26,047 nt of DNA from the NCBI GenBank assembly GCA_964618055.1, contig CAZTWR010000001.1, positions 1 through 26,047 of the forward strand, read 5' to 3'. A program made the translations under genes and the position numbers. This document shows positions 6,777-17,443 of this stretch, in pieces. Each line of letters starts with the position of its first letter. Within the stretch, counting starts at the first letter, position 1. This DNA comes from an uncultured Pirellulales bacterium. Its GTDB lineage: Bacteria > Planctomycetota > Phycisphaerae > Sedimentisphaerales > Anaerobacaceae. The notes beneath the pieces are model-generated. The model made no database searches and was not told the origin of the DNA. It saw nothing but the letters and a program-made list of their open reading frames with translations.

Positions 6777-7742
6777 ATGAGTAAATGGCTTAAAAATATC
6801 CTAGGTCTGACAATACTGGTTTTCCTGCTGTGGTACCTAACCGGGCACTGGGGACAGCTAAAGGCACTGCTCCATTTGACTCCAAAACAGCTTGGCCTAA
6901 TGTATTTTTTGTACTTAGTGCCTACCCTAATCAACGCTCGTATTGTGCAATGTTTAGTAGAGGCCCTGAAAATTAGAACCCGTTTCTGGGACATGGCTTT
7001 GCTCAATAATGCCGCTTTGCTACTCAACTATGCCCCGATGAAATTTGGGACGATTTTCCGGGCGAATTATTTGAAGCGTCACTACGGCCTTACCTACTCA
7101 CGCTTTGCGACGTTTTTTTTGTATATCACGTTTTTGATGACAGCTACCGCAGCAACGATAGGCTTGGCTGTTTTGCTAACAATCTACGGGTTGGGTAAGT
7201 ATGAAAGCAAGATATTGGCTGGTGTCTTTGCTGGAACGATAATAGGCTCACTAATTTTCTTGCTGTTCCCCTTGCCTGAGCCAAAAGCAAAAGGAAGGTT
7301 AAGGACGGCGCTGCGAAATTTTCTTTCCAGCAGAAGACAGATTTCTAAAGAAAGAAAAACAGTTTTGGTTTCAGTCTCACTTTTAACTTTAAGCTTCTTG
7401 TTTACGGCTCTACGTATCGGAATTATCTACCATAGTATGGGTAAGAATATTCATCCATGTGGTTATCTTGTTTTAGGGGCCGTTGGTTTTGTGATTTTGT
7501 TTATTGGGCTTACGCCTGGTTCATTAGGAATTAGGGAACTTGTGCTTGGCTTTAGTGCTATAGCTCTTGGCATACCATTAGAAGTGGGTGTGTTAGCAGC
7601 AATGCTCGATAGAGCAATATCAATGAGTTATATATTTGTCGTAGGTGGCATTTGCACTTTATTGCTTTGGCATAAATCACCAGCTGATTTCAAGGAGCGA
7701 GAAAACAACTCCACAAATCAGCAGCACTACACTACTGTTTAA
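6777..7742 (+). CDS. UPF0104 / lysylphosphatidylglycerol-synthase-TM flippase-like membrane protein
   Basis: About 8 TM segments; LLLNYAPMKFGTIFRANYLKR, GLTPGSLGIRE, LLDR-like MLDRAIS motifs. Confidence 0.8.
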   Translation: MSKWLKNILGLTILVFLLWYLTGHWGQLKALLHLTPKQLGLMYFLYLVPTLINARIVQCLVEALKIRTRFWDMALLNNAALLLNYAPMKFGTIFRANYLKRHYGLTYSRFATFFLYITFLMTATAATIGLAVLLTIYGLGKYESKILAGVFAGTIIGSLIFLLFPLPEPKAKGRLRTALRNFLSSRRQISKERKTVLVSVSLLTLSFLFTALRIGIIYHSMGKNIHPCGYLVLGAVGFVILFIGLTPGSLGIRELVLGFSAIALGIPLEVGVLAAMLDRAISMSYIFVVGGICTLLLWHKSPADFKERENNSTNQQHYTTV

Positions 7743-9409
7743 TTAGTAGTGCTGCTTAAATCAAAAATCACATATGGATTCATGCCGGCTCTGTAGAATT
7801 TGCCGTTCTTTACCTCACCAGGGTCGCCAGGGATATATTCCTCGACCTTGTATCGCAGTTGTAGCTCCTTAATTAGCTGGGCCAGATAAATAGCCTGCTC
7901 CCTGTTATGATGCGTCGTCGGCATCAAGTAATATGGAAACCTTCCCGTTTTTGCCTTTTGTTCAATCTCTTCTACTGTCCGAGCAACCACAATATCTCTG
8001 TCAAGATGCCAGGCAATTTCCGGCCGGTAAAATGCGCCCTTCGCAGGATGCTGATTAACTATAAAATCCTCAAAGCTCAAAAGAGCCTTATCCGGGGGTA
8101 TCTTCTGCTGCAGCTTCTCAAACATTCTTATTTTCGCCGGTGACTGCCAGCGGATACCATAATAGAAATTGGTCCCCATCACGCTAAATACAAAAAACAG
8201 GCCTACAAGCAGCACCATAGCAGCGTTTGCAAGATATCTATTTGCTTTTCTGAGAATATCTCCCAGCAGCATCACCCCCAGTGCAGCAGATATCGCAGTA
8301 AAAAAGCAAAACGGTCGTTCCCATGTCTGATGCCTCCACAGACAACCCTTTAACAAGAAAAGCTGAAATACCGGCGGCATAAGAAAGAGCCAGAAGTGTG
8401 GAAAACGCCGCGATACAGTTGCTGTTGTATTTTTTGAAGTGTTTGACATAAAGACAAATAATTGGCCAAACGTCAGATAAACAATCACGGCAATCAGGAC
8501 CGGCAGCGTAAAATTATACACTGCAAATTCCCAGAATTTGGCAAACCACGCCGACCAGACGTGTTCTTTCATCTCGCCGGAACCAGCTCGCCACTTATAC
8601 AGGTCGATTATTTTTTGATAATTCCATCCATGTCCAGCTGTCATAATAATGAAATCCAAAGCCAAACTGCTCAATGGCGCAATAATCAAAATAGCGAGCA
8701 AAGACTTGTCTGGGAAAGTTTGGTGATAAATACAACGACAGAGGTAATGTACCCCAATTGCCAGTGCAAAGAAGAATCCCTCCCAGCTTAACTGCAGCAT
8801 CATAAATAGGCAAAAGCCCAAGAACATCTTGTGTGCTTTTTTAGGTTCCGGGCCGTCCCTCAAACCTCTAATTATCACAAGATAGTTCCAGATAGCCCAG
8901 AGTGTAAACGGATACAGCCACAAATTAACCCCGAAGTGGCCGATAATGGGAAACAAACAGAAAAAAAGACCCGCAAGTAATGCTGTCTTGTCGTCCAGTA
9001 ACCCCCGTAAAATCTTCAGAAAAATCAATAGCGTAATTACTGTTGCTGCCACATTTACCACTCGTAGAGACCACGTATGAATACCAAGAACGGCCATAGC
9101 AGCAGCATTGAGCAGAGCGCCAAGCTGCGGATGGTCAAGATATCGAAATGGTTTTCCAACCGGCGGATAACCTACAGCTCGTGTGGAAAACCCCTTCGTG
9201 TAACCAAGACCATATTTAACATGAACTCTGGCAGCCCAAGGACTATGAGCGTCGGCCCAGCTATGCAGCCCATAGAAAGGCCGGGCAATATCACGACTTA
9301 ATATAGAAGCCAGCAATATTGCAAGTAATCCCGCACAAAGCCAGAAACTGAAACCTCCATTTGAAATATTTAAATTGTCCACCCTTTTCATAGAGCGCTC
9401 CACTACCAT
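7739..9409 (-). CDS. GT-C fold (ArnT/PMT, GT39/GT83-like) membrane glycosyltransferase
   Basis: N-terminal TM, loop FYGLHSWADAH...YLDHPQLGALL, WSLRVV, many TM helices, soluble C-terminal domain. Alternative start at ATG 9391. Confidence 0.75.
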   Translation of the reverse strand: MVVERSMKRVDNLNISNGGFSFWLCAGLLAILLASILSRDIARPFYGLHSWADAHSPWAARVHVKYGLGYTKGFSTRAVGYPPVGKPFRYLDHPQLGALLNAAAMAVLGIHTWSLRVVNVAATVITLLIFLKILRGLLDDKTALLAGLFFCLFPIIGHFGVNLWLYPFTLWAIWNYLVIIRGLRDGPEPKKAHKMFLGFCLFMMLQLSWEGFFFALAIGVHYLCRCIYHQTFPDKSLLAILIIAPLSSLALDFIIMTAGHGWNYQKIIDLYKWRAGSGEMKEHVWSAWFAKFWEFAVYNFTLPVLIAVIVYLTFGQLFVFMSNTSKNTTATVSRRFPHFWLFLMPPVFQLFLLKGCLWRHQTWERPFCFFTAISAALGVMLLGDILRKANRYLANAAMVLLVGLFFVFSVMGTNFYYGIRWQSPAKIRMFEKLQQKIPPDKALLSFEDFIVNQHPAKGAFYRPEIAWHLDRDIVVARTVEEIEQKAKTGRFPYYLMPTTHHNREQAIYLAQLIKELQLRYKVEEYIPGDPGEVKNGKFYRAGMNPYVIFDLSSTTN

Positions 9410-9563: not shown

Positions 9564-10847
9564 TTAAGACCGGCTTTTACTGCTCTCAACTATGCCTTTT
9601 ACATCCGAGACTGTAGGTATCTCGGGGATGATACTTTTATCTGGAAGACCTTTTATTATCAAAAAAGCAGTGTCCTGTGTGTGTTTGCCGGTGAAGATAC
9701 CTTTGTCAACCAGTTGTTTGGCTTTGACATTTGCCTTGAGGTTGAATCCTTTATTGCCGATGAGAACCATATCCGGCGCATTTTCAAGATATGGGCCGGA
9801 ATAAAGCTGCTCTTTTCTGTATATGTCCCTTATAACCTTTTTGCCGTCTATTTCCAGCGAATGAAAGAGACTCTCGAGTTGAGACAGAGGCTCTTCGGCC
9901 TCAGCCGGCTCGACAGTTCCGCAGGGGAACTTGCCTTTGAGGTTTAGATAAATCCTCGCAGGGTCAAGAACAAATGCTTTTGTACCATAACAGATGTTAT
10001 TCAAGTTAGTATCCTGGTCCTGTTTGAACCGGAGGAATCCATTTTGGATAAGCGGGTAACTGATGTAAACATCTTTCTCCAGCTTTTCAAAGCCGTGGTC
10101 TGAGTGCATAATCAGTAAATCATCATCTGTGCTTCTGTCGATGATTTCACCAACTGCTTGGTCAATTTTTCTGAAATGTTCGAGGAATAAATTGTGGTAC
10201 TTGTGGTTTTTATCCTCGACGGCATCCCATAAAAAGTGCATCAGTCTGTCGGTGCCGGTGAATACGAGCATGAAGGTTTGCCAGTCCTGGGTTTGCCAAA
10301 GATAACGGTATGCTTTAATCCTTGCCTCGAGGGTCTTATCCAAATCTGCTAAAAACAGCTCCATCGAACTATGCGCCTTCTGTGAATTGACATCAAGGCG
10401 ATAATCCAGGTTTTTTAGCTGCGGTATCAGGGACTTTGGATAAACACTTTTTTCAAAATCTATGGAGACAAAGCCCGAGATGAGGACGCCATTGGTTTCG
10501 CGGACAGGATAGGTAGAGGGGACGTTAATTATAACGGACTTTCCTTGCCACTGGTCCCAGAACGGTGGCGCTTTCAAATCGTTGAAGTTTGGGAATCTCA
10601 TCTTATAAGAATCAGGGAACAAATCCGTAAAGCCGAAGATTCCGTGCTGGCCGGGGTTTTTGCCGGTAATCAGTGAAGACCACGCTACGGAAGAGACCTC
10701 CGGGATAGAGGAGTGCATTTTTTTGAATATGCTCTGTGAAATTAACTGGTGGGTGTTGAGCATGACGCCGGTTTCGGCGAAGTTTTTAAGCATGCCGAAA
10801 GGCACGCCATCAAGGCCTATTATTACAGTTTTTGCGTTTTGAGTAAT
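9564..10847 (-). CDS. Alkaline-phosphatase superfamily protein (type I phosphodiesterase / nucleotide pyrophosphatase family), probable ATT start
   Basis: KTVIIGLDGVP (upstream of the track start at 10805), PEVSSVAWSSLITGKNPGQHGIFGF, TDRLMH, HSDHGF, FTGKH. The only start-like codons in frame upstream of IIGLDG are ATT/CTG. Confidence 0.8.
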   Translation of the reverse strand: MTQNAKTVIIGLDGVPFGMLKNFAETGVMLNTHQLISQSIFKKMHSSIPEVSSVAWSSLITGKNPGQHGIFGFTDLFPDSYKMRFPNFNDLKAPPFWDQWQGKSVIINVPSTYPVRETNGVLISGFVSIDFEKSVYPKSLIPQLKNLDYRLDVNSQKAHSSMELFLADLDKTLEARIKAYRYLWQTQDWQTFMLVFTGTDRLMHFLWDAVEDKNHKYHNLFLEHFRKIDQAVGEIIDRSTDDDLLIMHSDHGFEKLEKDVYISYPLIQNGFLRFKQDQDTNLNNICYGTKAFVLDPARIYLNLKGKFPCGTVEPAEAEEPLSQLESLFHSLEIDGKKVIRDIYRKEQLYSGPYLENAPDMVLIGNKGFNLKANVKAKQLVDKGIFTGKHTQDTAFLIIKGLPDKSIIPEIPTVSDVKGIVESSKSRS

Positions 10848-10851
10848 AATC

Positions 10852-12081
10852 TCAGTCCACCACAGTGATTATTCCGCCGGCACATATATTTTCATCCTGG
10901 ACAAGGACAAAACGCCCCAGCTCTTGAACGTCGTTGAAGTCTTTGATGACCACAGGCTTTTTGGTTTTGATAACGACTTCTGCCACTTCAAGATTTTTCA
11001 GTACTTTAGCATTCTGCTCGATAACTTCAAGGGTCGAGGAATTAATCCTTTTGTTAATGCTCTCTATTTTGCAGCTTGTCTGCTGGGTGGCACATCTTAT
11101 GTTCAATTTTTGGTCTTTGACAAAGTCCCTCTTGGTCATCCAGAATATATTCGCAGTAATTTTGTCGGTTAAGATAGGTTCTTTACCCGGCAAACATACT
11201 ATATTACCGCGCTCGAGAAAAACTGAATCGGTAGTTGTAATGCCGACGCATTCGCTAGCAACCGCTTTATCAGTTTTTTCGAGGAATTTCTCTATAGCAC
11301 CAATCCTTGTAACTTGGCCGGTTGGCAGAATCTTTACTTCGAGACCTTTCTCGATAACACCTGACTCAACTCTGCCAACGTTAATCCGCTTGTCTGCAAT
11401 CTTGTACACATCCTGGACAGGGAAAATCAAGGGTTTGTCTTCAGCAGGCAGCCTATTCTGCAAAATATCCATACTCTCCAGAAACGTCGGGCCGGTGTAC
11501 CAGTCCATATTTTCGGATTTTTTTGCAATGTTGTCACCTTTGATTGCGGAGATTGGGATGTAAAAAATGGGTTCGATATTTATAGATTTGAGCCATTCGG
11601 CTACGTCTTTTTTGACAGTGTTGAAATGCTCCTGAGCGAAATCCACCAGGTCCATTTTATTTAAAACGACTATAACCTGATGTAACCCCAACAGCGACAG
11701 CATATACGAATGTCGTTTGGTCTGCTCCCTGACGCCCTCGGCAACATCGACAATTACAACAGCTGTCTCTGCCTGGGAGGCACCGGTAATCATATTCTTG
11801 ACAAATTCCACATGGCCAGGAGCGTCAATTATTACATAACGCCTTTTGTCGGTTTTGAAGAAAACCTGTGTTGTATCAATGGTAATACCTTGCTTGCGTT
11901 CTTCTTCCAAATGGTCCAGCAGGTAGGCGAACTCGGTCTCTCTGCCAGCCTCTGCTGAAGCCTTTTTCACTTCCTCAATTTTGTCCGGGGCAAGCGAGTC
12001 AGTATCATAAAGCAGTCTTCCAATCAAGGTTGATTTCCCATGGTCAACGTGACCTACAATAACAAAACTCAGAACGTCCAT
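10852..12081 (-). CDS. cysN: Sulfate adenylyltransferase subunit 1 (GTPase), without a fused APS kinase domain
   Basis: GHVDHGKSTLIGRL, EERKQGITID, DAPGH, NMITGAS, NKMD, ISAIKGDN, GRFVL; two genes downstream of cysD. Confidence 0.93.
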   Translation of the reverse strand: MDVLSFVIVGHVDHGKSTLIGRLLYDTDSLAPDKIEEVKKASAEAGRETEFAYLLDHLEEERKQGITIDTTQVFFKTDKRRYVIIDAPGHVEFVKNMITGASQAETAVVIVDVAEGVREQTKRHSYMLSLLGLHQVIVVLNKMDLVDFAQEHFNTVKKDVAEWLKSINIEPIFYIPISAIKGDNIAKKSENMDWYTGPTFLESMDILQNRLPAEDKPLIFPVQDVYKIADKRINVGRVESGVIEKGLEVKILPTGQVTRIGAIEKFLEKTDKAVASECVGITTTDSVFLERGNIVCLPGKEPILTDKITANIFWMTKRDFVKDQKLNIRCATQQTSCKIESINKRINSSTLEVIEQNAKVLKNLEVAEVVIKTKKPVVIKDFNDVQELGRFVLVQDENICAGGIITVVD

Positions 12082-12082
12082 C

Positions 12083-12400
12083 TTAATCCTCGCTGAGATA
12101 CCCCAACTCTTTTAGTTTCTTCTTTATTTCCTCCATATCCTTTTCTTCCAAGGGCTTGCTTACAGGTAAAGAAGACAGCGGATGTTTTTTCTGGCCGAAT
12201 TTTATAAAAGACCAGAATCTTTCATGCATATAATAACAGAATATTTTCGCTACCGCTTCAACAGCGCCTACGCCGAGTGAAAGAACAATTTTGCGAGTAA
12301 AGACAAAGACTATCGTAGTGGTAACAATAGCAGCAAGTGACCGATAACTTACCGCCTTTATTATCGAGCGCAGGTGTGCCTCTTTGTTATAGTCAATCAT
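12083..12400 (-). CDS. DUF2061-like small membrane protein with a soluble C-terminal LxxLGY helix
   Basis: EAHLRSIIKAVSYR...YYMHERFW; tail KDMEEIKKKLKELGYLSED; lies 1 nt from each neighbour. Confidence 0.8.
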   Translation of the reverse strand: MIDYNKEAHLRSIIKAVSYRSLAAIVTTTIVFVFTRKIVLSLGVGAVEAVAKIFCYYMHERFWSFIKFGQKKHPLSSLPVSKPLEEKDMEEIKKKLKELGYLSED

Positions 12401-12401
12401 C

Positions 12402-13214
12402 CTACATATACCCCAGCGACCGCAATTTCTGCATCATATAGTCGTCTTCCTTGTCCTGTGCTCGTCCACTTCTCTCGGAGACTTTAGAGGTTTTCAACTC
12501 CTCGACAATCTTGTCTATGGTGTCAGCATCTGAATCGACCGGATTACAGCAGGTTTCACAGCCGATGCTTCTGTATCGTTTTCCATTTTTGGCAAAGTAG
12601 AGCTCGACGACGGGGATGTTTTCTCTTTTGACATATTCCCAGACGTCGATTTCGCGCCAGCCGAGTAATGGATGGACCCGAAGGTGCTCTTCCTCAGCGG
12701 CCTTGGTCTTATACTGGTCCCAGAGTTCCGGCGGCTGGTTCTTATAATCCCATTCAAAATCTTCGTCTCTTGGACTGAAGACCCTTTCTTTAGCGCGAAT
12801 ACCGTGCTCGTCCCTTCTGATTCCAAGATACAGCGCCTTAAAACCGTGTTTGGCGATAGCCTTTCTCAGTGCCACAGTCTTTAGTTCATTGCAGCACTGG
12901 AACTTTCCCTTATCTGGCCCGATGCCCTTACTAAGTGCTTCTTCGTTTTTGGCGACGATAAGATTTAAGCCCCACTCTTTGGTGTATTTTTCTCTGAAGT
13001 TGTAAATTTCCTTAAATTTGTAGGTAGTGTCGAGGTGAACAATCGGAAAGGGTATCTTACCAAAAAAGGCTTTTCTGATGAGCCAAAGCAGGGTCGTGGA
13101 GTCTTTGCCGATTGACCAGAGCATAGCCACATCCCTGAATTCGCTATAGGCTTCCCTGATGATGAAAATACTCTGATTTTCCAACTTATCCAGTTGACTG
13201 AGGCCGGAATTCAT
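12402..13214 (-). CDS. cysD: Sulfate adenylyltransferase subunit 2 retaining a CC...CxxC motif
   Basis: WSIGKDS PP-loop, HLDT, GIRRDE, RAKERVFS, QPPELW, RVHPLL, ERSGRAQD; C107-C108 and C219-x2-C222-C223. Confidence 0.93.
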   Translation of the reverse strand: MNSGLSQLDKLENQSIFIIREAYSEFRDVAMLWSIGKDSTTLLWLIRKAFFGKIPFPIVHLDTTYKFKEIYNFREKYTKEWGLNLIVAKNEEALSKGIGPDKGKFQCCNELKTVALRKAIAKHGFKALYLGIRRDEHGIRAKERVFSPRDEDFEWDYKNQPPELWDQYKTKAAEEEHLRVHPLLGWREIDVWEYVKRENIPVVELYFAKNGKRYRSIGCETCCNPVDSDADTIDKIVEELKTSKVSERSGRAQDKEDDYMMQKLRSLGYM

Positions 13215-13362
13215 ATTAAAGAGACTCCTTAAGTTAATCTCGAACAGTTTTAATTACCTAAACTAATCATTATAATGGAAATATGAGCAATATCCATTGA
13301 AAAAAGTGATTTTTTAGCTACAAACTTGATATACACGCCTCCAGATACGAGCTCTTTTTTCT

Positions 13363-13391
13363 TTGACTGTTCGGGGGTATTTTGCTATTCT
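13363..13391 (+). promoter_or_regulatory. Putative sigma70 promoter (extended -10) for the sqdB operon
   Basis: TTGACT (13363-13368), 17-nt spacer ending TGC, TATTCT (13386-13391). Confidence 0.55.
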
Positions 13392-13495
13392 TATCTATAG
13401 TTGGTGTAAAGTCTTAGCAATTGCTGGTCGATTTGGCTGGATGAAGTGTGTCTTTTCAAATAAAGCCGGTTCAGAGGTATTATTAAGGAGAGAAA

Positions 13496-15022
13496 ATGCA
13501 CAATGCTAAATGCACTTGTTGGAACTGCCCGGCCATCGATTTGGCAGGGAAGGTTGATTTCCGTGCCTGTGGCCAATCTGTAAAACAGTTCGATAAAACC
13601 GCAGATTTGACGGGTGAAACCCATGTTATGGCTGAGTGCAAACGCAGGCCCGAACTCGGCCTTTACGACCCAATGGGTATCAGCTTCGAGGAGTGCCCCC
13701 AATGGCAAGAAACGCCATACGGTTACATACTAAAAGATATGAGGGTGATGATTCTCGGCATCGACGGCTATCTCGGCTGGACACTTGCTCTCTGGCTGGG
13801 CAGTCTGGGCTGTAAGGTCAGCGGGGTAGATAACTACAATCGCCGAAACTGGGTGAAAGAAAGAGGCGCTCATACCATCGTGCCTATCGCGAGAATGAAT
13901 GAAAGACTTCGAGCAGCAAAAGAAATCCTCGGTATCGACATCAATTTCCGGCAGATAGACATCTACACGGAGCGCGAGCGCCTCAAGGAATTTATTGACG
14001 AAGTAAAACCCGAATCAATCGTTCACTATGCGGAAAACCCGTCTCCAGCTTTCAGCATGATTGATGTCGAGCATGCCATCGAAGTGCAAAAAAACAACGT
14101 CCTCGGAACCCTTGCATTGCTGTTTACAATGCGGGACACCGTCCCGGAATCGTCCCTGCTGAAGCTCGGAACGATGGGCGAATATGGAACGCCTTTAACC
14201 GGAAGGCCTCTCTTCGAGGGTATCTTCCCCGCCGAGGCAATACTTCAATGGGACGGCCGCGAATGGAGTCTCGGCGGCGAACTGACACCAAGAGACCCGG
14301 TGAGTTTCTACCACGTCAGCAAAGTCCAGGACACGTTCAACGTATACGAAGCCGGCAAATACTGGTGGCTGAGGTCCTATGACATTATGCAGGGTGTAAT
14401 CTTTGGCGTCCATACCGAGCAGGTGGCGGCAGAGGCTCGGCTTCGCACACGGCTCGATATCGACGAGTGGTTTGGAACAATAATAAACCGTTTCGTTGCC
14501 CAGGCGGTCATCGGCATTCCTTTAACGCTGTACGGACTCGGTAAACAGATAAGAGGTTTTATTGCGCTGCGAGATGCTATGGAATGCATGACAAGACTAA
14601 TCTGTTCACCGCCTGAACCAGGCCAGTATGCTGTTGTCAACCAAGTTTCGGGGATTTACAGTGCAAGACAGTTGGCTTACACGGTTGCAAAGGTCGGCAG
14701 AGAGCATTTTAAACTGCCTGTTCAAATCCAGCGAGTCGAAAACCCAAGGGTCGAAGCCGACGAACATCTATTCGAAGCGCTGTATGAAAAACTTCCGAGG
14801 GAATATGGCTTTGAACCAAAGGTCAGCGTGGAAGAAGAAATCTTCAGGATGTTTGAACTCTTTTTGACTGACGAGGTCAGAAGAAGGATTGAAGAAAGAA
14901 AGCACGTAATAATACCCAAGACCTGGTGGTCGGGCGTCAAAAAGGAAGTGGAAAGATTGGAACTGCTGGACCTTAAGGGAGAGATAGAAGAGGATGAGCG
15001 AGTGTTTAAGATTCACCGATAA
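13496..15022 (+). CDS. sqdB: UDP-sulfoquinovose synthase (SqdB/SQD1/Agl3 family) with an extra 81-aa Cys-rich N-terminal domain
   Basis: Core from M82: MRVMILGIDGYLGW, VDN, HYAENPSPAFSM, LKLGTMGEYGTP, FYHVSKVQD (YxxxK), DIMQGVIFG, NRFVAQAVIGIPLTLYG, NPRVE. Strong SD (AAGGAG) precedes ATG 13496. Confidence 0.9.
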   Translation: MHNAKCTCWNCPAIDLAGKVDFRACGQSVKQFDKTADLTGETHVMAECKRRPELGLYDPMGISFEECPQWQETPYGYILKDMRVMILGIDGYLGWTLALWLGSLGCKVSGVDNYNRRNWVKERGAHTIVPIARMNERLRAAKEILGIDINFRQIDIYTERERLKEFIDEVKPESIVHYAENPSPAFSMIDVEHAIEVQKNNVLGTLALLFTMRDTVPESSLLKLGTMGEYGTPLTGRPLFEGIFPAEAILQWDGREWSLGGELTPRDPVSFYHVSKVQDTFNVYEAGKYWWLRSYDIMQGVIFGVHTEQVAAEARLRTRLDIDEWFGTIINRFVAQAVIGIPLTLYGLGKQIRGFIALRDAMECMTRLICSPPEPGQYAVVNQVSGIYSARQLAYTVAKVGREHFKLPVQIQRVENPRVEADEHLFEALYEKLPREYGFEPKVSVEEEIFRMFELFLTDEVRRRIEERKHVIIPKTWWSGVKKEVERLELLDLKGEIEEDERVFKIHR

Positions 15023-15377
15023 GAACTTCAAGGAGGAAGTTCTCGGCAGCGAATTACCGGTTTTTGTGGACTTCTGGGGCTCATGGTGTCCGCCATGCAA
15101 AATGGTTGAACCGGTAATGGATAAGTTGGCAAAGCACTTCGATGGAAAAATAAAAGTTGGCAAGCTCAATGTCGACCAGAATCCTCAGACCCGCTCAATG
15201 TTTAATATTGGTGGTGCGCCAACCTTTATCCTATTCAAAGACAGCCAGGTTCTTGAGAGGATTGTAGGAGCTCGTTCAAAGAAACAGCTCCTGGAGTTGA
15301 TAGAAACCGCTCTCAAGTCCCAACCTTCGACGGCATCGAAAAGCTCAAAAACGCAAGAGTCAGAGCGGTCAGCGTAA
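14994..15377 (+). CDS. trxA: Thioredoxin
   Basis: VDFWGSWCPPCKM, KVGKLNVDQNP, APTFILFK; overlaps the end of sqdB by 29 nt. Confidence 0.9.
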   Translation: MSECLRFTDKNFKEEVLGSELPVFVDFWGSWCPPCKMVEPVMDKLAKHFDGKIKVGKLNVDQNPQTRSMFNIGGAPTFILFKDSQVLERIVGARSKKQLLELIETALKSQPSTASKSSKTQESERSA

Positions 15378-15400: not shown

Positions 15401-16396
15401 ATGGGAAAAACCCCCGACAAACAGCAAATCTTTATCACCGGCGGAGCAGGCTTTATTGGTGCCAACCTGACCAGGTATCTGCTGGAAAGGTCTGAATCTA
15501 ATATCACCGTATATGACAATCTCTCAACAGGTTCAAAGGCCAATCTCGACAAAGCCATAGGCGATTCTGGACAGAACGGCAGGGTCAAATTTATTCAAGG
15601 TGATATCCTTGACTTTGACGCAATGTTCCGAGTCGTTGCTGGTCATAATGCCGTAGTTCACCTTGCTGCACATACCCGCGTGCGCGAATCCATTGGGAAC
15701 CCCCGGGAAAATCTGATGATAAATTCGGTGGGCACCTTCAACGTCCTTGAAGCTGCGCGAAAGCAGGGTGTTGATAAATTTGTCTTCGCCTCATCAAATG
15801 CTGCTGTTGGCGAACAAAAACCCCCAATAAATGAGTCTATGATTGCCAACCCCCTTTCACCTTATGGTGCAGTAAAACTTTATGGCGAAGCACTTTGTTC
15901 GGCCTATTACCGTTGCTACGGGTTCAAAACTGTCTCCCTTCGTTTTGCAAATGCATACGGGCTTTACTCAGGGCACAAAACCTCTGTTATCGCCAAATTC
16001 CTAAGAAGGGTCAGAGAAGGTAAGAGTTTGGAAATATACGGCGATGGCAACCAAACCCGCGACTTCATCCACGCTCAGGACATCTGCCAGGCGATAGACC
16101 TTATCCTTAGGGACCCCGCAAGGCGGGAACCTCTTACACACCACAACGGCGGACCCAATTTCTGGGGTGAGGTTTTCCAAATCGCCACCGGAGAGGAAAC
16201 AGCAATAATCAATCTTGCCAAAATGCTCATCGATTTCACGAATTCTCCGGAACAGCTGATAACATTCACTTCCCCAATAAAAGGCGAGATAAGAAAAAAT
16301 TTCTCAGACATAACAAAAGCGAAAGAGATTCTTGGGTTTTCTCCACAAATGAAATTGGGAACCCAGTTGAAAGCATTGTGCACTGAGGTACAGTAA
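15401..16396 (+). CDS. NAD-dependent epimerase/dehydratase (extended SDR, GalE-like)
   Basis: ITGGAGFIG, YDNLSTG, HLAA, ASSNAAVG, YGAVK, RFANAYG, GDGNQTRDFIH. Confidence 0.9.
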   Translation: MGKTPDKQQIFITGGAGFIGANLTRYLLERSESNITVYDNLSTGSKANLDKAIGDSGQNGRVKFIQGDILDFDAMFRVVAGHNAVVHLAAHTRVRESIGNPRENLMINSVGTFNVLEAARKQGVDKFVFASSNAAVGEQKPPINESMIANPLSPYGAVKLYGEALCSAYYRCYGFKTVSLRFANAYGLYSGHKTSVIAKFLRRVREGKSLEIYGDGNQTRDFIHAQDICQAIDLILRDPARREPLTHHNGGPNFWGEVFQIATGEETAIINLAKMLIDFTNSPEQLITFTSPIKGEIRKNFSDITKAKEILGFSPQMKLGTQLKALCTEVQ

Positions 16397-16399
16397 AAA

Positions 16400-17443
16400 A
16401 TGTCAAATTTAAGAATTATCGGCTTAATCATAGGGATATTAGGATTAGTCCTGACTTTCAGAATTTATCGCGGCCCGCGGTGGAGAAGATTGAATTTTGT
16501 GCTTTCCGGATTTTTTAGTCTCTCCCTCATTGCCATCTCTGTTAACCCTAACTTAGTCAATAGAGCCACCGGAATGCTCGCTTTGCAGCAGGAAGAACGC
16601 GGACGGATACTTACACTCTTAATCTTATCGAGTATGGGCCTATGGTTTCTGCTAATACATCATAGGACCAAGTTAGACAAATATGGCCGCCAGTTTGACC
16701 TACTTGTTAGACACCTTGGCCGCGAAAAGGCCGAACCATTAATAGGTGCCGACACCTCTAAGGCCGAAATTATGGTCGTTATGCCTGCTTACAACGAGGC
16801 TGAAAACCTCAAAAGTCTCTTAAAGCAAATGCCATCAGAAATCCAGGACAAAAAAGTGGGCGTCATCGTCGTAGACGATGGCAGCACCGACGAGACCGTA
16901 AAAATCGTCGAACAGGCAGGATATTTAGCTGTTAGAAACAGCATCAGACGTGGCGGTGGAGCTGCCTTAAGACTCGGCTACGACCTTGCAAAAGACATCG
17001 GCGCTAAGATAGCCGTCACTATGGATGCCGACGGCCAGCATGACCCCAAGCAAATCCATCGCCTTATCGAGCCTATCCTGCAGGATAAATCCGATTTCGT
17101 AATCGGCTCCCGCATACTTGGTAGATGGGAAAAAGATAATAAACTTCGTTCCATCGGATTGTATTTCTTCAATCTCATAATAAACACCCTGACCAAAACT
17201 AAAATCACTGATTGCTCCAGCGGTTTTAGAGCTTTTAAAGTCGATGTTCTGGACTCTGTCATTCTGAAAGAAGACCAATTTCATACCAGTGAACTTATAA
17301 TCGACGCCGCTAAAAAAAGAGTAAGAATTGCTGAAGTGCCCATAACTATTAGGAGCCGAAAACACGGCCGAAGCAAAAAAGGCAAAGACTGGAAATATGG
17401 ACTAAGCTTTGCAAAAACTATTCTCAAAACCTGGTGGCGATAA
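16400..17443 (+). CDS. DUF2304-like membrane domain fused to a GT2 polyprenol-phosphate glycosyltransferase
   Basis: Residues about 1-110 form three hydrophobic helices ending FDLLVRHLG; then VMPAYNEA, VVDDGSTD, TMDADGQH, DCSSGFRAF. Confidence 0.85.
   Translation: MSNLRIIGLIIGILGLVLTFRIYRGPRWRRLNFVLSGFFSLSLIAISVNPNLVNRATGMLALQQEERGRILTLLILSSMGLWFLLIHHRTKLDKYGRQFDLLVRHLGREKAEPLIGADTSKAEIMVVMPAYNEAENLKSLLKQMPSEIQDKKVGVIVVDDGSTDETVKIVEQAGYLAVRNSIRRGGGAALRLGYDLAKDIGAKIAVTMDADGQHDPKQIHRLIEPILQDKSDFVIGSRILGRWEKDNKLRSIGLYFFNLIINTLTKTKITDCSSGFRAFKVDVLDSVILKEDQFHTSELIIDAAKKRVRIAEVPITIRSRKHGRSKKGKDWKYGLSFAKTILKTWWR

Follow-up and report, generated by a model that had tools for sequence, protein, structure and literature searches.

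Free sulfite has been shown to act in vitro as the sulfur donor of the UDP-sulfoquinovose synthases SQD1 and Agl3 (PMC4388408; PMC13436972), and the plant (spinach) SQD1 purifies as a complex together with FdGOGAT, a glutamate synthase that depends on ferredoxin. This complex is so far the sole lead on how sulfite, which is toxic and scarce, is supplied to UDP-sulfoquinovose synthase in vivo. Here we analyzed a locus encoding such a synthase, SqdB, in an uncultured Pirellulales bacterium (assembly GCA_964618055.1, contig CAZTWR010000001.1, positions 1 to 26,047 of the forward strand; this whole stretch of 26,047 nt is called the window in the following). In it, a dedicated sulfate-activation operon (cysD–DUF2061–cysN–AlkP, minus strand) adjoins a UDP-sulfoquinovose operon (sqdB–trx–epimerase–GT2, plus strand). 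An earlier note, made from the letters of the window, had described the two groups as diverging from a 281-bp spacer and had suggested an adenosine 5′-phosphosulfate (APS) reductase split over CysD, SqdB and thioredoxin that channels sulfite to SqdB. Our family-profile scan found all gene identities and coordinates of that description to hold. The idea of a sulfur relay is retained below, but the CysD cluster is replaced in it by AlkP, an enzyme of the alkaline phosphatase superfamily, which the earlier note overlooked as the conserved third partner.

AlkP, a long form of SqdB with a cysteine-rich N-terminal domain (N-domain) and thioredoxin are inherited together across phyla. The three genes lie adjacent and in this order in 12 of 15 long-SqdB loci, a count that includes the window and three loci ending at a contig edge and that covers at least seven phylum-level groups (taxa: Planctomycetota, Auribacterota, Omnitrophota, Spirochaetaceae, Nitrospinae, Anaerolineales, Aminicenantes and Dehalococcoidia). 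Thioredoxin adjoins long SqdB in 13 of the 15 loci. At short-SqdB loci, which lack the N-domain, thioredoxin and AlkP are both absent, and the triad was found in none of seven. The earlier note had also asked whether a CysD with CC and CxxC motifs accompanies the cysteine-domain SqdB and its adjacent trxA. The pairing with trxA extends across phyla; half of the long-SqdB genomes (7/14) lack a short CysD and use Sat instead, and cysDN adjoins sqdB in just 4 of the 15 loci. CysD or Sat is present in 10 of the 11 long-SqdB genomes that carry AlkP. Three long-SqdB genomes, G131, G132 and G133, have neither AlkP nor thioredoxin at the locus, and no AlkP homologue was found anywhere in these genomes. 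A conventional sulfite source is evident in all three, namely CysH in G131 and Sat plus Dsr-like NIR_SIR in G132 and G133; in G132, Sat, AprA and two Dsr-like NIR_SIR genes share one contig. We tentatively propose, at a probability of about 0.35, that sulfate is converted by the locus into UDP-sulfoquinovose destined for a glycoconjugate of the envelope and that the sulfur-delivery unit of the locus consists of AlkP, the cysteine domain of SqdB and thioredoxin, not of the CysD cluster.

AlkP also tracks the short CysDN where SqdB is absent. Operons of the type cysD-cysN-AlkP without SqdB occur at L095 (AlkP 77% identity), L060, L061 and L063, and among 120 genomes of the window's own class the AlkP subfamily (membership at E below 1e-60) was found solely where a short CysD is encoded, namely in six of seven such genomes. 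In both G130 and G128, AlkP is present as two paralogues, of which one accompanies cysDN and the other sqdB-trx. AlkP is the gene most tightly linked both to the cysteine-domain SqdB and to the short CysDN. G130, G128 and G019 hold a second short cysDN-AlkP set in addition to a canonical cysH operon, which speaks for APS being put to a dedicated use outside assimilation.

The surroundings of these operons vary. At L095:1-7587, two PF01663 proteins of 677–732 aa and a sulfatase-TPR protein are encoded divergently from the cysD-cysN-AlkP operon, and similarly large AlkP-like proteins are encoded beside cysDN in L062 and L064, one of them having an N-terminus that resembles a signal peptide. In G111, a genome of the same order without SqdB, the AlkP gene overlaps, within L096:9505-11936 (+), a gene for a PatB-family C-S lyase (TIGR04350, 383 bits at a cut-off of 340), followed by three sulfatase genes on the opposite strand.

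The SqdB of the window has 508 aa, of which residues 82–479 match Arabidopsis SQD1 (1i24; E=1e-75). The catalytic Thr145, Tyr182, His183 and Lys186 (SQD1 numbering) are kept, the motifs KLGTMGEYG and SFYHVSK align to 1i24, and the consensus around the catalytic Tyr-His-Lys is SFYHxSK; by this alignment, the protein retains the complete SQD1 active site. Its modeled fold matches 1qrr (Foldseek E=1.7e-34, TM 0.87 by target). Against the NCBIfam equivalog NF041015 it scored 393.6 bits, below the cut-off of 575, and it represents a divergent subfamily with extra domains. One long SqdB homologue, P0372 (845 aa), carries an intein-like insertion of ~340 residues exactly within the catalytic KLG/TMGEYG motif.

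The spare cysteines that the earlier note had seen in the N-domain proved to include five conserved ones. Among 116 full-length homologues, C8, C11, C48 and C67 never vary, C25 is kept in 98% and C6 is variable, and the sequence around these cysteines is almost frozen. The AlphaFold model is confident for residues 1–20 and 41–81; the loop 21–40, which contains C25, has low confidence. C25 itself lies in an invariant KVDFRACGQS loop. The N-domain matched no family in Pfam and gave matches at noise level only (0.81) in the ESM Atlas. When 1.84 billion representatives were scanned with HMMER, the only proteins to contain it were long SqdB, fragments and a few tiny open reading frames (ORFs), with no informative fusion. 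Stand-alone ORFs of this kind, 68–108 aa long and with all five cysteines kept, are L103:514-777, P0387, P0398, P0399, P0403, P0404 and P0406; their contigs are short, packed with small genes and maybe phage-like.

Long SqdB forms a very large family, with 65–91% identity across phyla (Planctomycetota, Omnitrophota, Auribacterota, Spirochaetes, Nitrospinae, Chloroflexi and Aminicenantes). None of the 120 genomes from the window's own class, each at least 90% complete, holds it, and co-occurrence was therefore assessed on loci found by homology. Because it is missing from these same-class genomes while distant phyla possess it, long SqdB appears to move horizontally. Literature searches on the cysteine-domain SqdB or its thioredoxin and AlkP partners, and on Fe-S-type CysD and DUF2061, found nothing relevant.

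The conserved motifs of AlkP (GLDG, EVSSVAW, TDRLMH, SDHG and GKHT) correspond to the bimetal ligands (D, D..H, DH and H) and a Ser nucleophile, and AlkP is an intact bimetallo enzyme of the Ser-nucleophile type. Its structure model has a pLDDT of 94, and the nearest folds are phosphonoacetate hydrolase and the Xac nucleotide pyrophosphatase/phosphodiesterase (NPP), at TM 0.66–0.70 and 12–16% identity; a sequence search against the PDB gave no match. The protein has no signal peptide and no membrane anchor. Because the conserved GLDG metal-ligand strand is encoded upstream of GTG 10805, with homologues beginning ~14 codons earlier, the predicted true start must be a non-canonical codon abutting the cysN stop, either ATT (~10847-10850) or CTG. 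Gene callers shorten AlkP to 413 aa.

The thioredoxin gene overlaps the 3′ end of sqdB by 29 nt in the window, as the earlier note had observed, and such a start/end overlap is usual in loci across phyla. At all loci other than L092, the thioredoxin active site reads WCxxC, mostly WCPPC, and the thioredoxin of the window passes TIGR01068.

In the mechanism that we favor, AlkP may handle APS and, together with thioredoxin and the thiols of the N-domain, bring sulfite to SqdB. AlkP would act on APS in a first step and pass its sulfuryl group on to the thiol of a protein, which would be accepted either by the invariant, mobile C25 loop of the N-domain or by thioredoxin itself. In a second step, thioredoxin would free sulfite at the enone intermediate of SqdB. 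Overall, the chemistry would be that of an APS reductase, performed by non-homologous parts and channeled to SqdB. A further-reaching version of this proposal, which we regard as possible but doubtful, is that the AlkP-fold enzyme, its dedicated thioredoxin and the five-cysteine N-domain act jointly as an APS reductase or APS:thiol sulfotransferase of non-homologous make-up that hands sulfite directly to SqdB, and that the same AlkP subfamily is the APS consumer in anaerobes with CysDN and without CysH, CysC or Apr.

CysD and CysN are a sulfate adenylyltransferase and therefore form APS. CysD possesses the PP-loop SIGKDS, is encoded in the same operon as cysN and passes the NF003587 cut-off. 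It ends in a CysD-type tail (...KLRSLGYM), which is almost invariant (102/121 homologues), and has no APS-reductase tail of the type ECG(L/I)H; neither CysH family model reached its cut-off in the window (TIGR02055, 61.8 bits at a cut-off of 235; NF002537, 76.7 bits at a cut-off of 154). The protein has just five cysteines (C107, C108, C219, C222 and C223), and each of them is kept in 121 of 121 close homologues. In HMMER alignments, C107/C108 coincide with the CC and C219/C222 with the CxxC of 2goy and 7lhr, the pair of solved APS reductases from P. aeruginosa and M. tuberculosis. Because four of the cysteines sit at cluster positions and all five are invariant, a metal cluster in the CysD of the window is a sound prediction from sequence. 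The earlier note had thus placed the cluster ligands correctly, but they are not specific to this locus. The CC..CxxC arrangement also occurs in CysDs encoded beside a canonical cysH (L047, L049 and L081), several other long (300-aa) CysDs carry CxxC..CxxC, and the short AlkP-linked CysDs of G008 and G097 have lost the ligands, with AlkP retained. Among the CysDs compared, the cluster cysteines are absent only from the proteobacterial type, and a short, cysteine-bearing CysD is common among genomes without SqdB. The fifth cysteine, C223 (in CxxCC), is specific to the short CysD clade. Taken together, cluster-type cysteines appear to be a general trait of CysD and not a peculiarity of the sulfoquinovose locus.

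The DUF2061 gene lies between cysD and cysN in the window, in G121 and in G122, and keeps this position in L004 and L005; it is not found there in the spirochaete locus L008. The tail of the DUF2061 protein holds LKELGY, similar to the CysD tail KLRSLGYM. In G111 (L058:5670-10626), a restriction-modification pair, made up of a MvaI/BcnI endonuclease and a methylase, and a TauE/SafE permease are encoded between cysD and cysN.

No cysH, aprA or cysC gene was found in the window (contig C1), in agreement with the earlier note. The window genome, G000, is a metagenome-assembled genome, 72.9% complete and in 373 contigs. Within this assembly, CysD was the sole match to PF01507, and NIR_SIR and AprA were not found; because of the incompleteness, the failure to find cysH proves little. 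At genome level the absence of cysC does not hold, as a Sat-CysC (Sat-APS kinase) fusion is encoded on the 1.7-kb contig C351 (L002:1-915). Therefore, cysC and the synthesis of 3′-phosphoadenosine 5′-phosphosulfate (PAPS) exist beside the CysN of the window, which at 409 aa indeed has no C-terminal APS-kinase domain (no PF01583). The nearest relative, G122, has an identical locus (CysD 93% and AlkP 81% identical) and the same Sat-CysC fusion (583-aa frame). It encodes a genuine thioredoxin-dependent APS reductase with CC, CxxC and ECGIH (NF002537, 177 bits at a cut-off of 154), adjoined by a sulfite reductase. CysH-type enzymes were also found in the long-SqdB genomes G125, G127, G128, G130 and G131. 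A conventional APS reductase elsewhere, which the earlier note itself had named as speaking against its proposal, is thus present in G122 and five further long-SqdB genomes.

A different picture emerged from closed genomes. The closed sister genome G121 (2.27 Mb) has the same locus with CysDN, AlkP, SqdB and thioredoxin, and a 223-aa sulfite reductase; CysH, CysC, Sat and AprA were not found in it, a point in which the split-reductase proposal stands. The only PAPS_reduct relative besides CysD in G121, a 386-aa protein (L025:574-1734 (-)) with the PP-loop STGKDS and a Cys-rich, ferredoxin-like C-terminal region, was not accepted as an APS reductase, although such a role is conceivable: the match of 27 bits comes from its P-loop alone, and four related genomes lack the protein. 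G111 and G118 are closed as well and encode CysDN and AlkP; in them we found no CysH, CysC, AprA, NIR_SIR or strong second PAPS_reduct match. In these two genomes APS is without a known consumer.

Several observations weigh against a sulfur relay through AlkP. The alignment of AlkP homologues contains no conserved cysteine, the nearest folds are hydrolases of P-O and P-C bonds, and sulfuryl transfer by such an enzyme is a conjecture without known precedent; for AlkP itself, a role as APS-dependent O-sulfotransferase or as pyrophosphatase is equally open. The thioredoxin beside the long SqdB of Aminicenantes (L092:6191-6523 (+)) reads WCLPS, with the resolving cysteine replaced. Five of the 11 genomes with AlkP and thioredoxin also encode a conventional APS reductase, a possible supply of free sulfite, and a test for anti-correlation of CysH with AlkP showed none. 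In the closed genome G134, which has no CysD, the AlkP gene is partial and lacks the N-terminus; this lone AlkP is likely a remnant. It is possible, although on balance we think it unlikely, that conventional free sulfite feeds SqdB, made by an ordinary APS reductase elsewhere or in an unassembled part of the genome, or imported. The N-domain would then be either a module in which zinc or Fe-S has a structural role, or a redox switch that the coupled thioredoxin holds in the reduced state, and AlkP an unrelated helper, for instance a pyrophosphatase pulling ATP-sulfurylase, or a phosphatase. The use of free sulfite by SQD1 and Agl3 in vitro (PMC4388408; PMC13436972) and the phosphoryl hydrolases that are closest in fold to AlkP are in line with this explanation, as are the CysH-type APS reductase beside sulfite reductase in G122 and the reductases of G125, G127, G128, G130 and G131. 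Because the Sat-CysC fusion is common to both, G000 (73% complete) probably resembles G122. However, free sulfite leaves unexplained why AlkP and thioredoxin are linked to the cysteine-domain SqdB across phyla and absent at short-SqdB loci, why genomes with a full cysH operon maintain a second cysDN-AlkP set, and how APS is consumed in the closed G121, G111 and G118.

It seems rather improbable to us that AlkP serves as an O-sulfotransferase dependent on APS, as a member of the sulfatase superfamily that runs in the direction of transfer and sulfates an envelope glycan or lipid. At sqdB loci it would sulfate the same sulfoquinovose-bearing glycan, and thioredoxin and the N-domain would serve SqdB independently. 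The closed G111 and G118, where CysDN and AlkP occur without SqdB, CysC, CysH or sulfite reductase and no PAPS-type route exists, fit this function equally well, a further point against the relay, and cysDN-AlkP clusters sit amid glycosyltransferases, larger exported PF01663 proteins and sulfatases. Yet AlkP stays 57–77% identical inside and outside SqdB contexts, lies directly upstream of sqdB even where the glycosyltransferases differ, and lacks both a signal peptide and a membrane anchor; next to it in G111 is the PatB C-S lyase and no glycan gene. We consider very improbable the APS reductase split over three proteins, namely CysD with the [4Fe-4S] ligands, SqdB with the catalytic cysteine in its N-domain and the thioredoxin encoded alongside, or its variant with C223 of CysD as the sulfonucleophile. 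The invariant CysD cysteines exactly at the APS-reductase cluster positions, the restriction of C223 to the short clade and the failure to find CysH in G000, G121, G111, G118 and G124 are consistent with it. It is at odds with the CC..CxxC CysDs beside canonical cysH, the loss of ligands in G008 and G097 despite the kept AlkP, the reliance of half of the long-SqdB genomes on Sat and the rarity of cysDN beside sqdB. Furthermore, CysH is encoded in 7 of the 12 genomes whose CysD has CxxCC, and an anti-correlation of CysH with C223 was tested and not found.

The features of the locus are compiled in Table 1. On the sqdB side of the divergent spacer, the promoter-like site TTGACT-17-TATTCT is located at 13363-13391(+) and is kept in the relatives L004 and L005, as is a TAAAGTCTTAG block within the 281 bp. 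An Rfam search of the window, including the spacer, gave no match.

Table 1 Genes, domains and spacer of the sulfate-activation and UDP-sulfoquinovose locus in the window.
Feature	Position	Strand	Evidence
LPG_synthase_TM membrane protein, candidate flippase for lipid-linked sugar	6777..7742	+	PF03706, 88 bits
GT-C glycosyltransferase (PMT_2/ArnT-like)	7739..9409	-	PF13231, 28.2 bits (cut-off 26.1)
AlkP-superfamily enzyme, NPP/PhnA-like fold	9564..10850 (annotated start GTG 10805)	-	PF01663, 110 bits
CysN, 409 aa	10852..12081	-	TIGR02034, 355.8 bits (cut-off 336.1)
DUF2061 small membrane protein	12083..12400	-	PF09834, 56.8 bits
CysD, short, 270 aa	12402..13214	-	NF003587, 359.7 bits (cut-off 195)
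Divergent spacer, 281 bp	13215..13495	.	promoter-like sites, both strands
SqdB N-terminal 81-residue domain, five conserved Cys	13496..13738	+	alignment of homologues
SqdB catalytic domain, UDP-sulfoquinovose synthase, SQD1-type	13739..15022	+	E=1e-75 to SQD1 1i24
Thioredoxin (WCPPC)	14994..15377	+	TIGR01068, 105.6 bits (cut-off 96.8)
NAD-dependent sugar epimerase/dehydratase (short-chain dehydrogenase/reductase, SDR)	15401..16396	+	PF01370, 204 bits
GT2 with N-terminal DUF2304 membrane part	16400..17443	+	PF00535 + PF10066

The neighboring genes point to an Arn-like envelope modification and not to synthesis of the sulfolipid SQDG. The GT2 glycosyltransferase with its DUF2304 part most resembles PpgS, AglJ and ArnC-like models of NCBIfam, all below their cut-offs, and is putatively of the polyprenyl-phosphate sugar transferase type. 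The GT-C enzyme is a candidate periplasmic transferase of a lipid-linked sugar, and a member of the LPG_synthase_TM family also adjoins AlkP in L063. The UDP-sulfoquinovose product probably enters an Arn-like envelope glycosylation. The epimerase would act first, GT2/DUF2304 would then load the sugar onto polyprenyl phosphate, the LPG_synthase_TM protein would flip the lipid-linked sugar, and the GT-C enzyme would move it to an envelope acceptor.

A conserved delivery module, genetically fused and coupled in this way, would answer the question of sulfite supply for very many uncultured anaerobes. Non-phototrophic sediment bacteria of many phyla would then make envelope sulfoquinovose, an unrecognized source in the sulfoquinovose cycle. 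If AlkP uses APS, it would represent a new class of enzymes that transfer sulfuryl groups or reduce APS, and it would close a pathway hole in sulfate-activating closed genomes without a known APS consumer. Independently of AlkP, the apparently wide distribution of cluster-type cysteines in CysD predicts oxygen-sensitive Fe-S ATP sulfurylases.

Compared with the sulfate-activating and sulfate-reducing enzymes described so far, the proteins of the window combine familiar folds in a different setting. Residues 5–209 of CysD align with the proteobacterial CysD of the CysDN complex 1zun (E=2e-60), the C-terminal tail is conserved and the partner is likewise a CysN GTPase. However, the CysD of the window is ~30 residues shorter, without a segment matching 1zun 232-262, and the five cysteines invariant in its own type are missing from the proteobacterial one. 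The operon further differs in having DUF2061 between cysD and cysN and in ending with AlkP in place of cysC. With the assimilatory APS reductase CysH (2goy, 7lhr), CysD shares the fold and the CC..CxxC positions. The proposed chemistry would also be alike, with the APS sulfuryl group passing to a protein thiol and thioredoxin releasing sulfite, whereas no protein of the window has the ECG(L/I)H tail and AlkP, the catalyst proposed here, shares no homology with CysH. AlkP in turn has the superfamily core with its bimetal ligands, and a nucleophile where NPP has its Thr, in common with NPP and phosphonoacetate hydrolase (2gsn, 1ei6), to which it is 12–16% identical. In contrast to these, its nucleophile is Ser instead of Thr, the protein resides in the cytoplasm, and the partners encoded with it are CysDN and SqdB-Trx.

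The SqdB of the window has the same SDR fold and catalytic residues as SQD1, SqdB and Agl3 (1qrr, 1i24) and differs from them by the 81-residue, five-cysteine N-domain and a C-terminal tail. It is partnered with thioredoxin and AlkP, and its context is envelope glycosylation instead of SqdX/SQD2 sulfolipid synthesis. The complex of spinach SQD1 with FdGOGAT, cited in PMC4388408, is a precedent for a partner protein that presents the sulfur donor to a UDP-sulfoquinovose synthase, although the partner is unrelated and that complex uses neither thioredoxin nor an AlkP-fold enzyme. For the later steps, the closest counterpart is the lipid-carrier modification by ArnC and ArnT, in which a GT2 of the polyprenyl-phosphate type, a flippase candidate and a GT-C enzyme likewise stand beside nucleotide-sugar genes; the sugar transferred here would be sulfoquinovose or its epimer.

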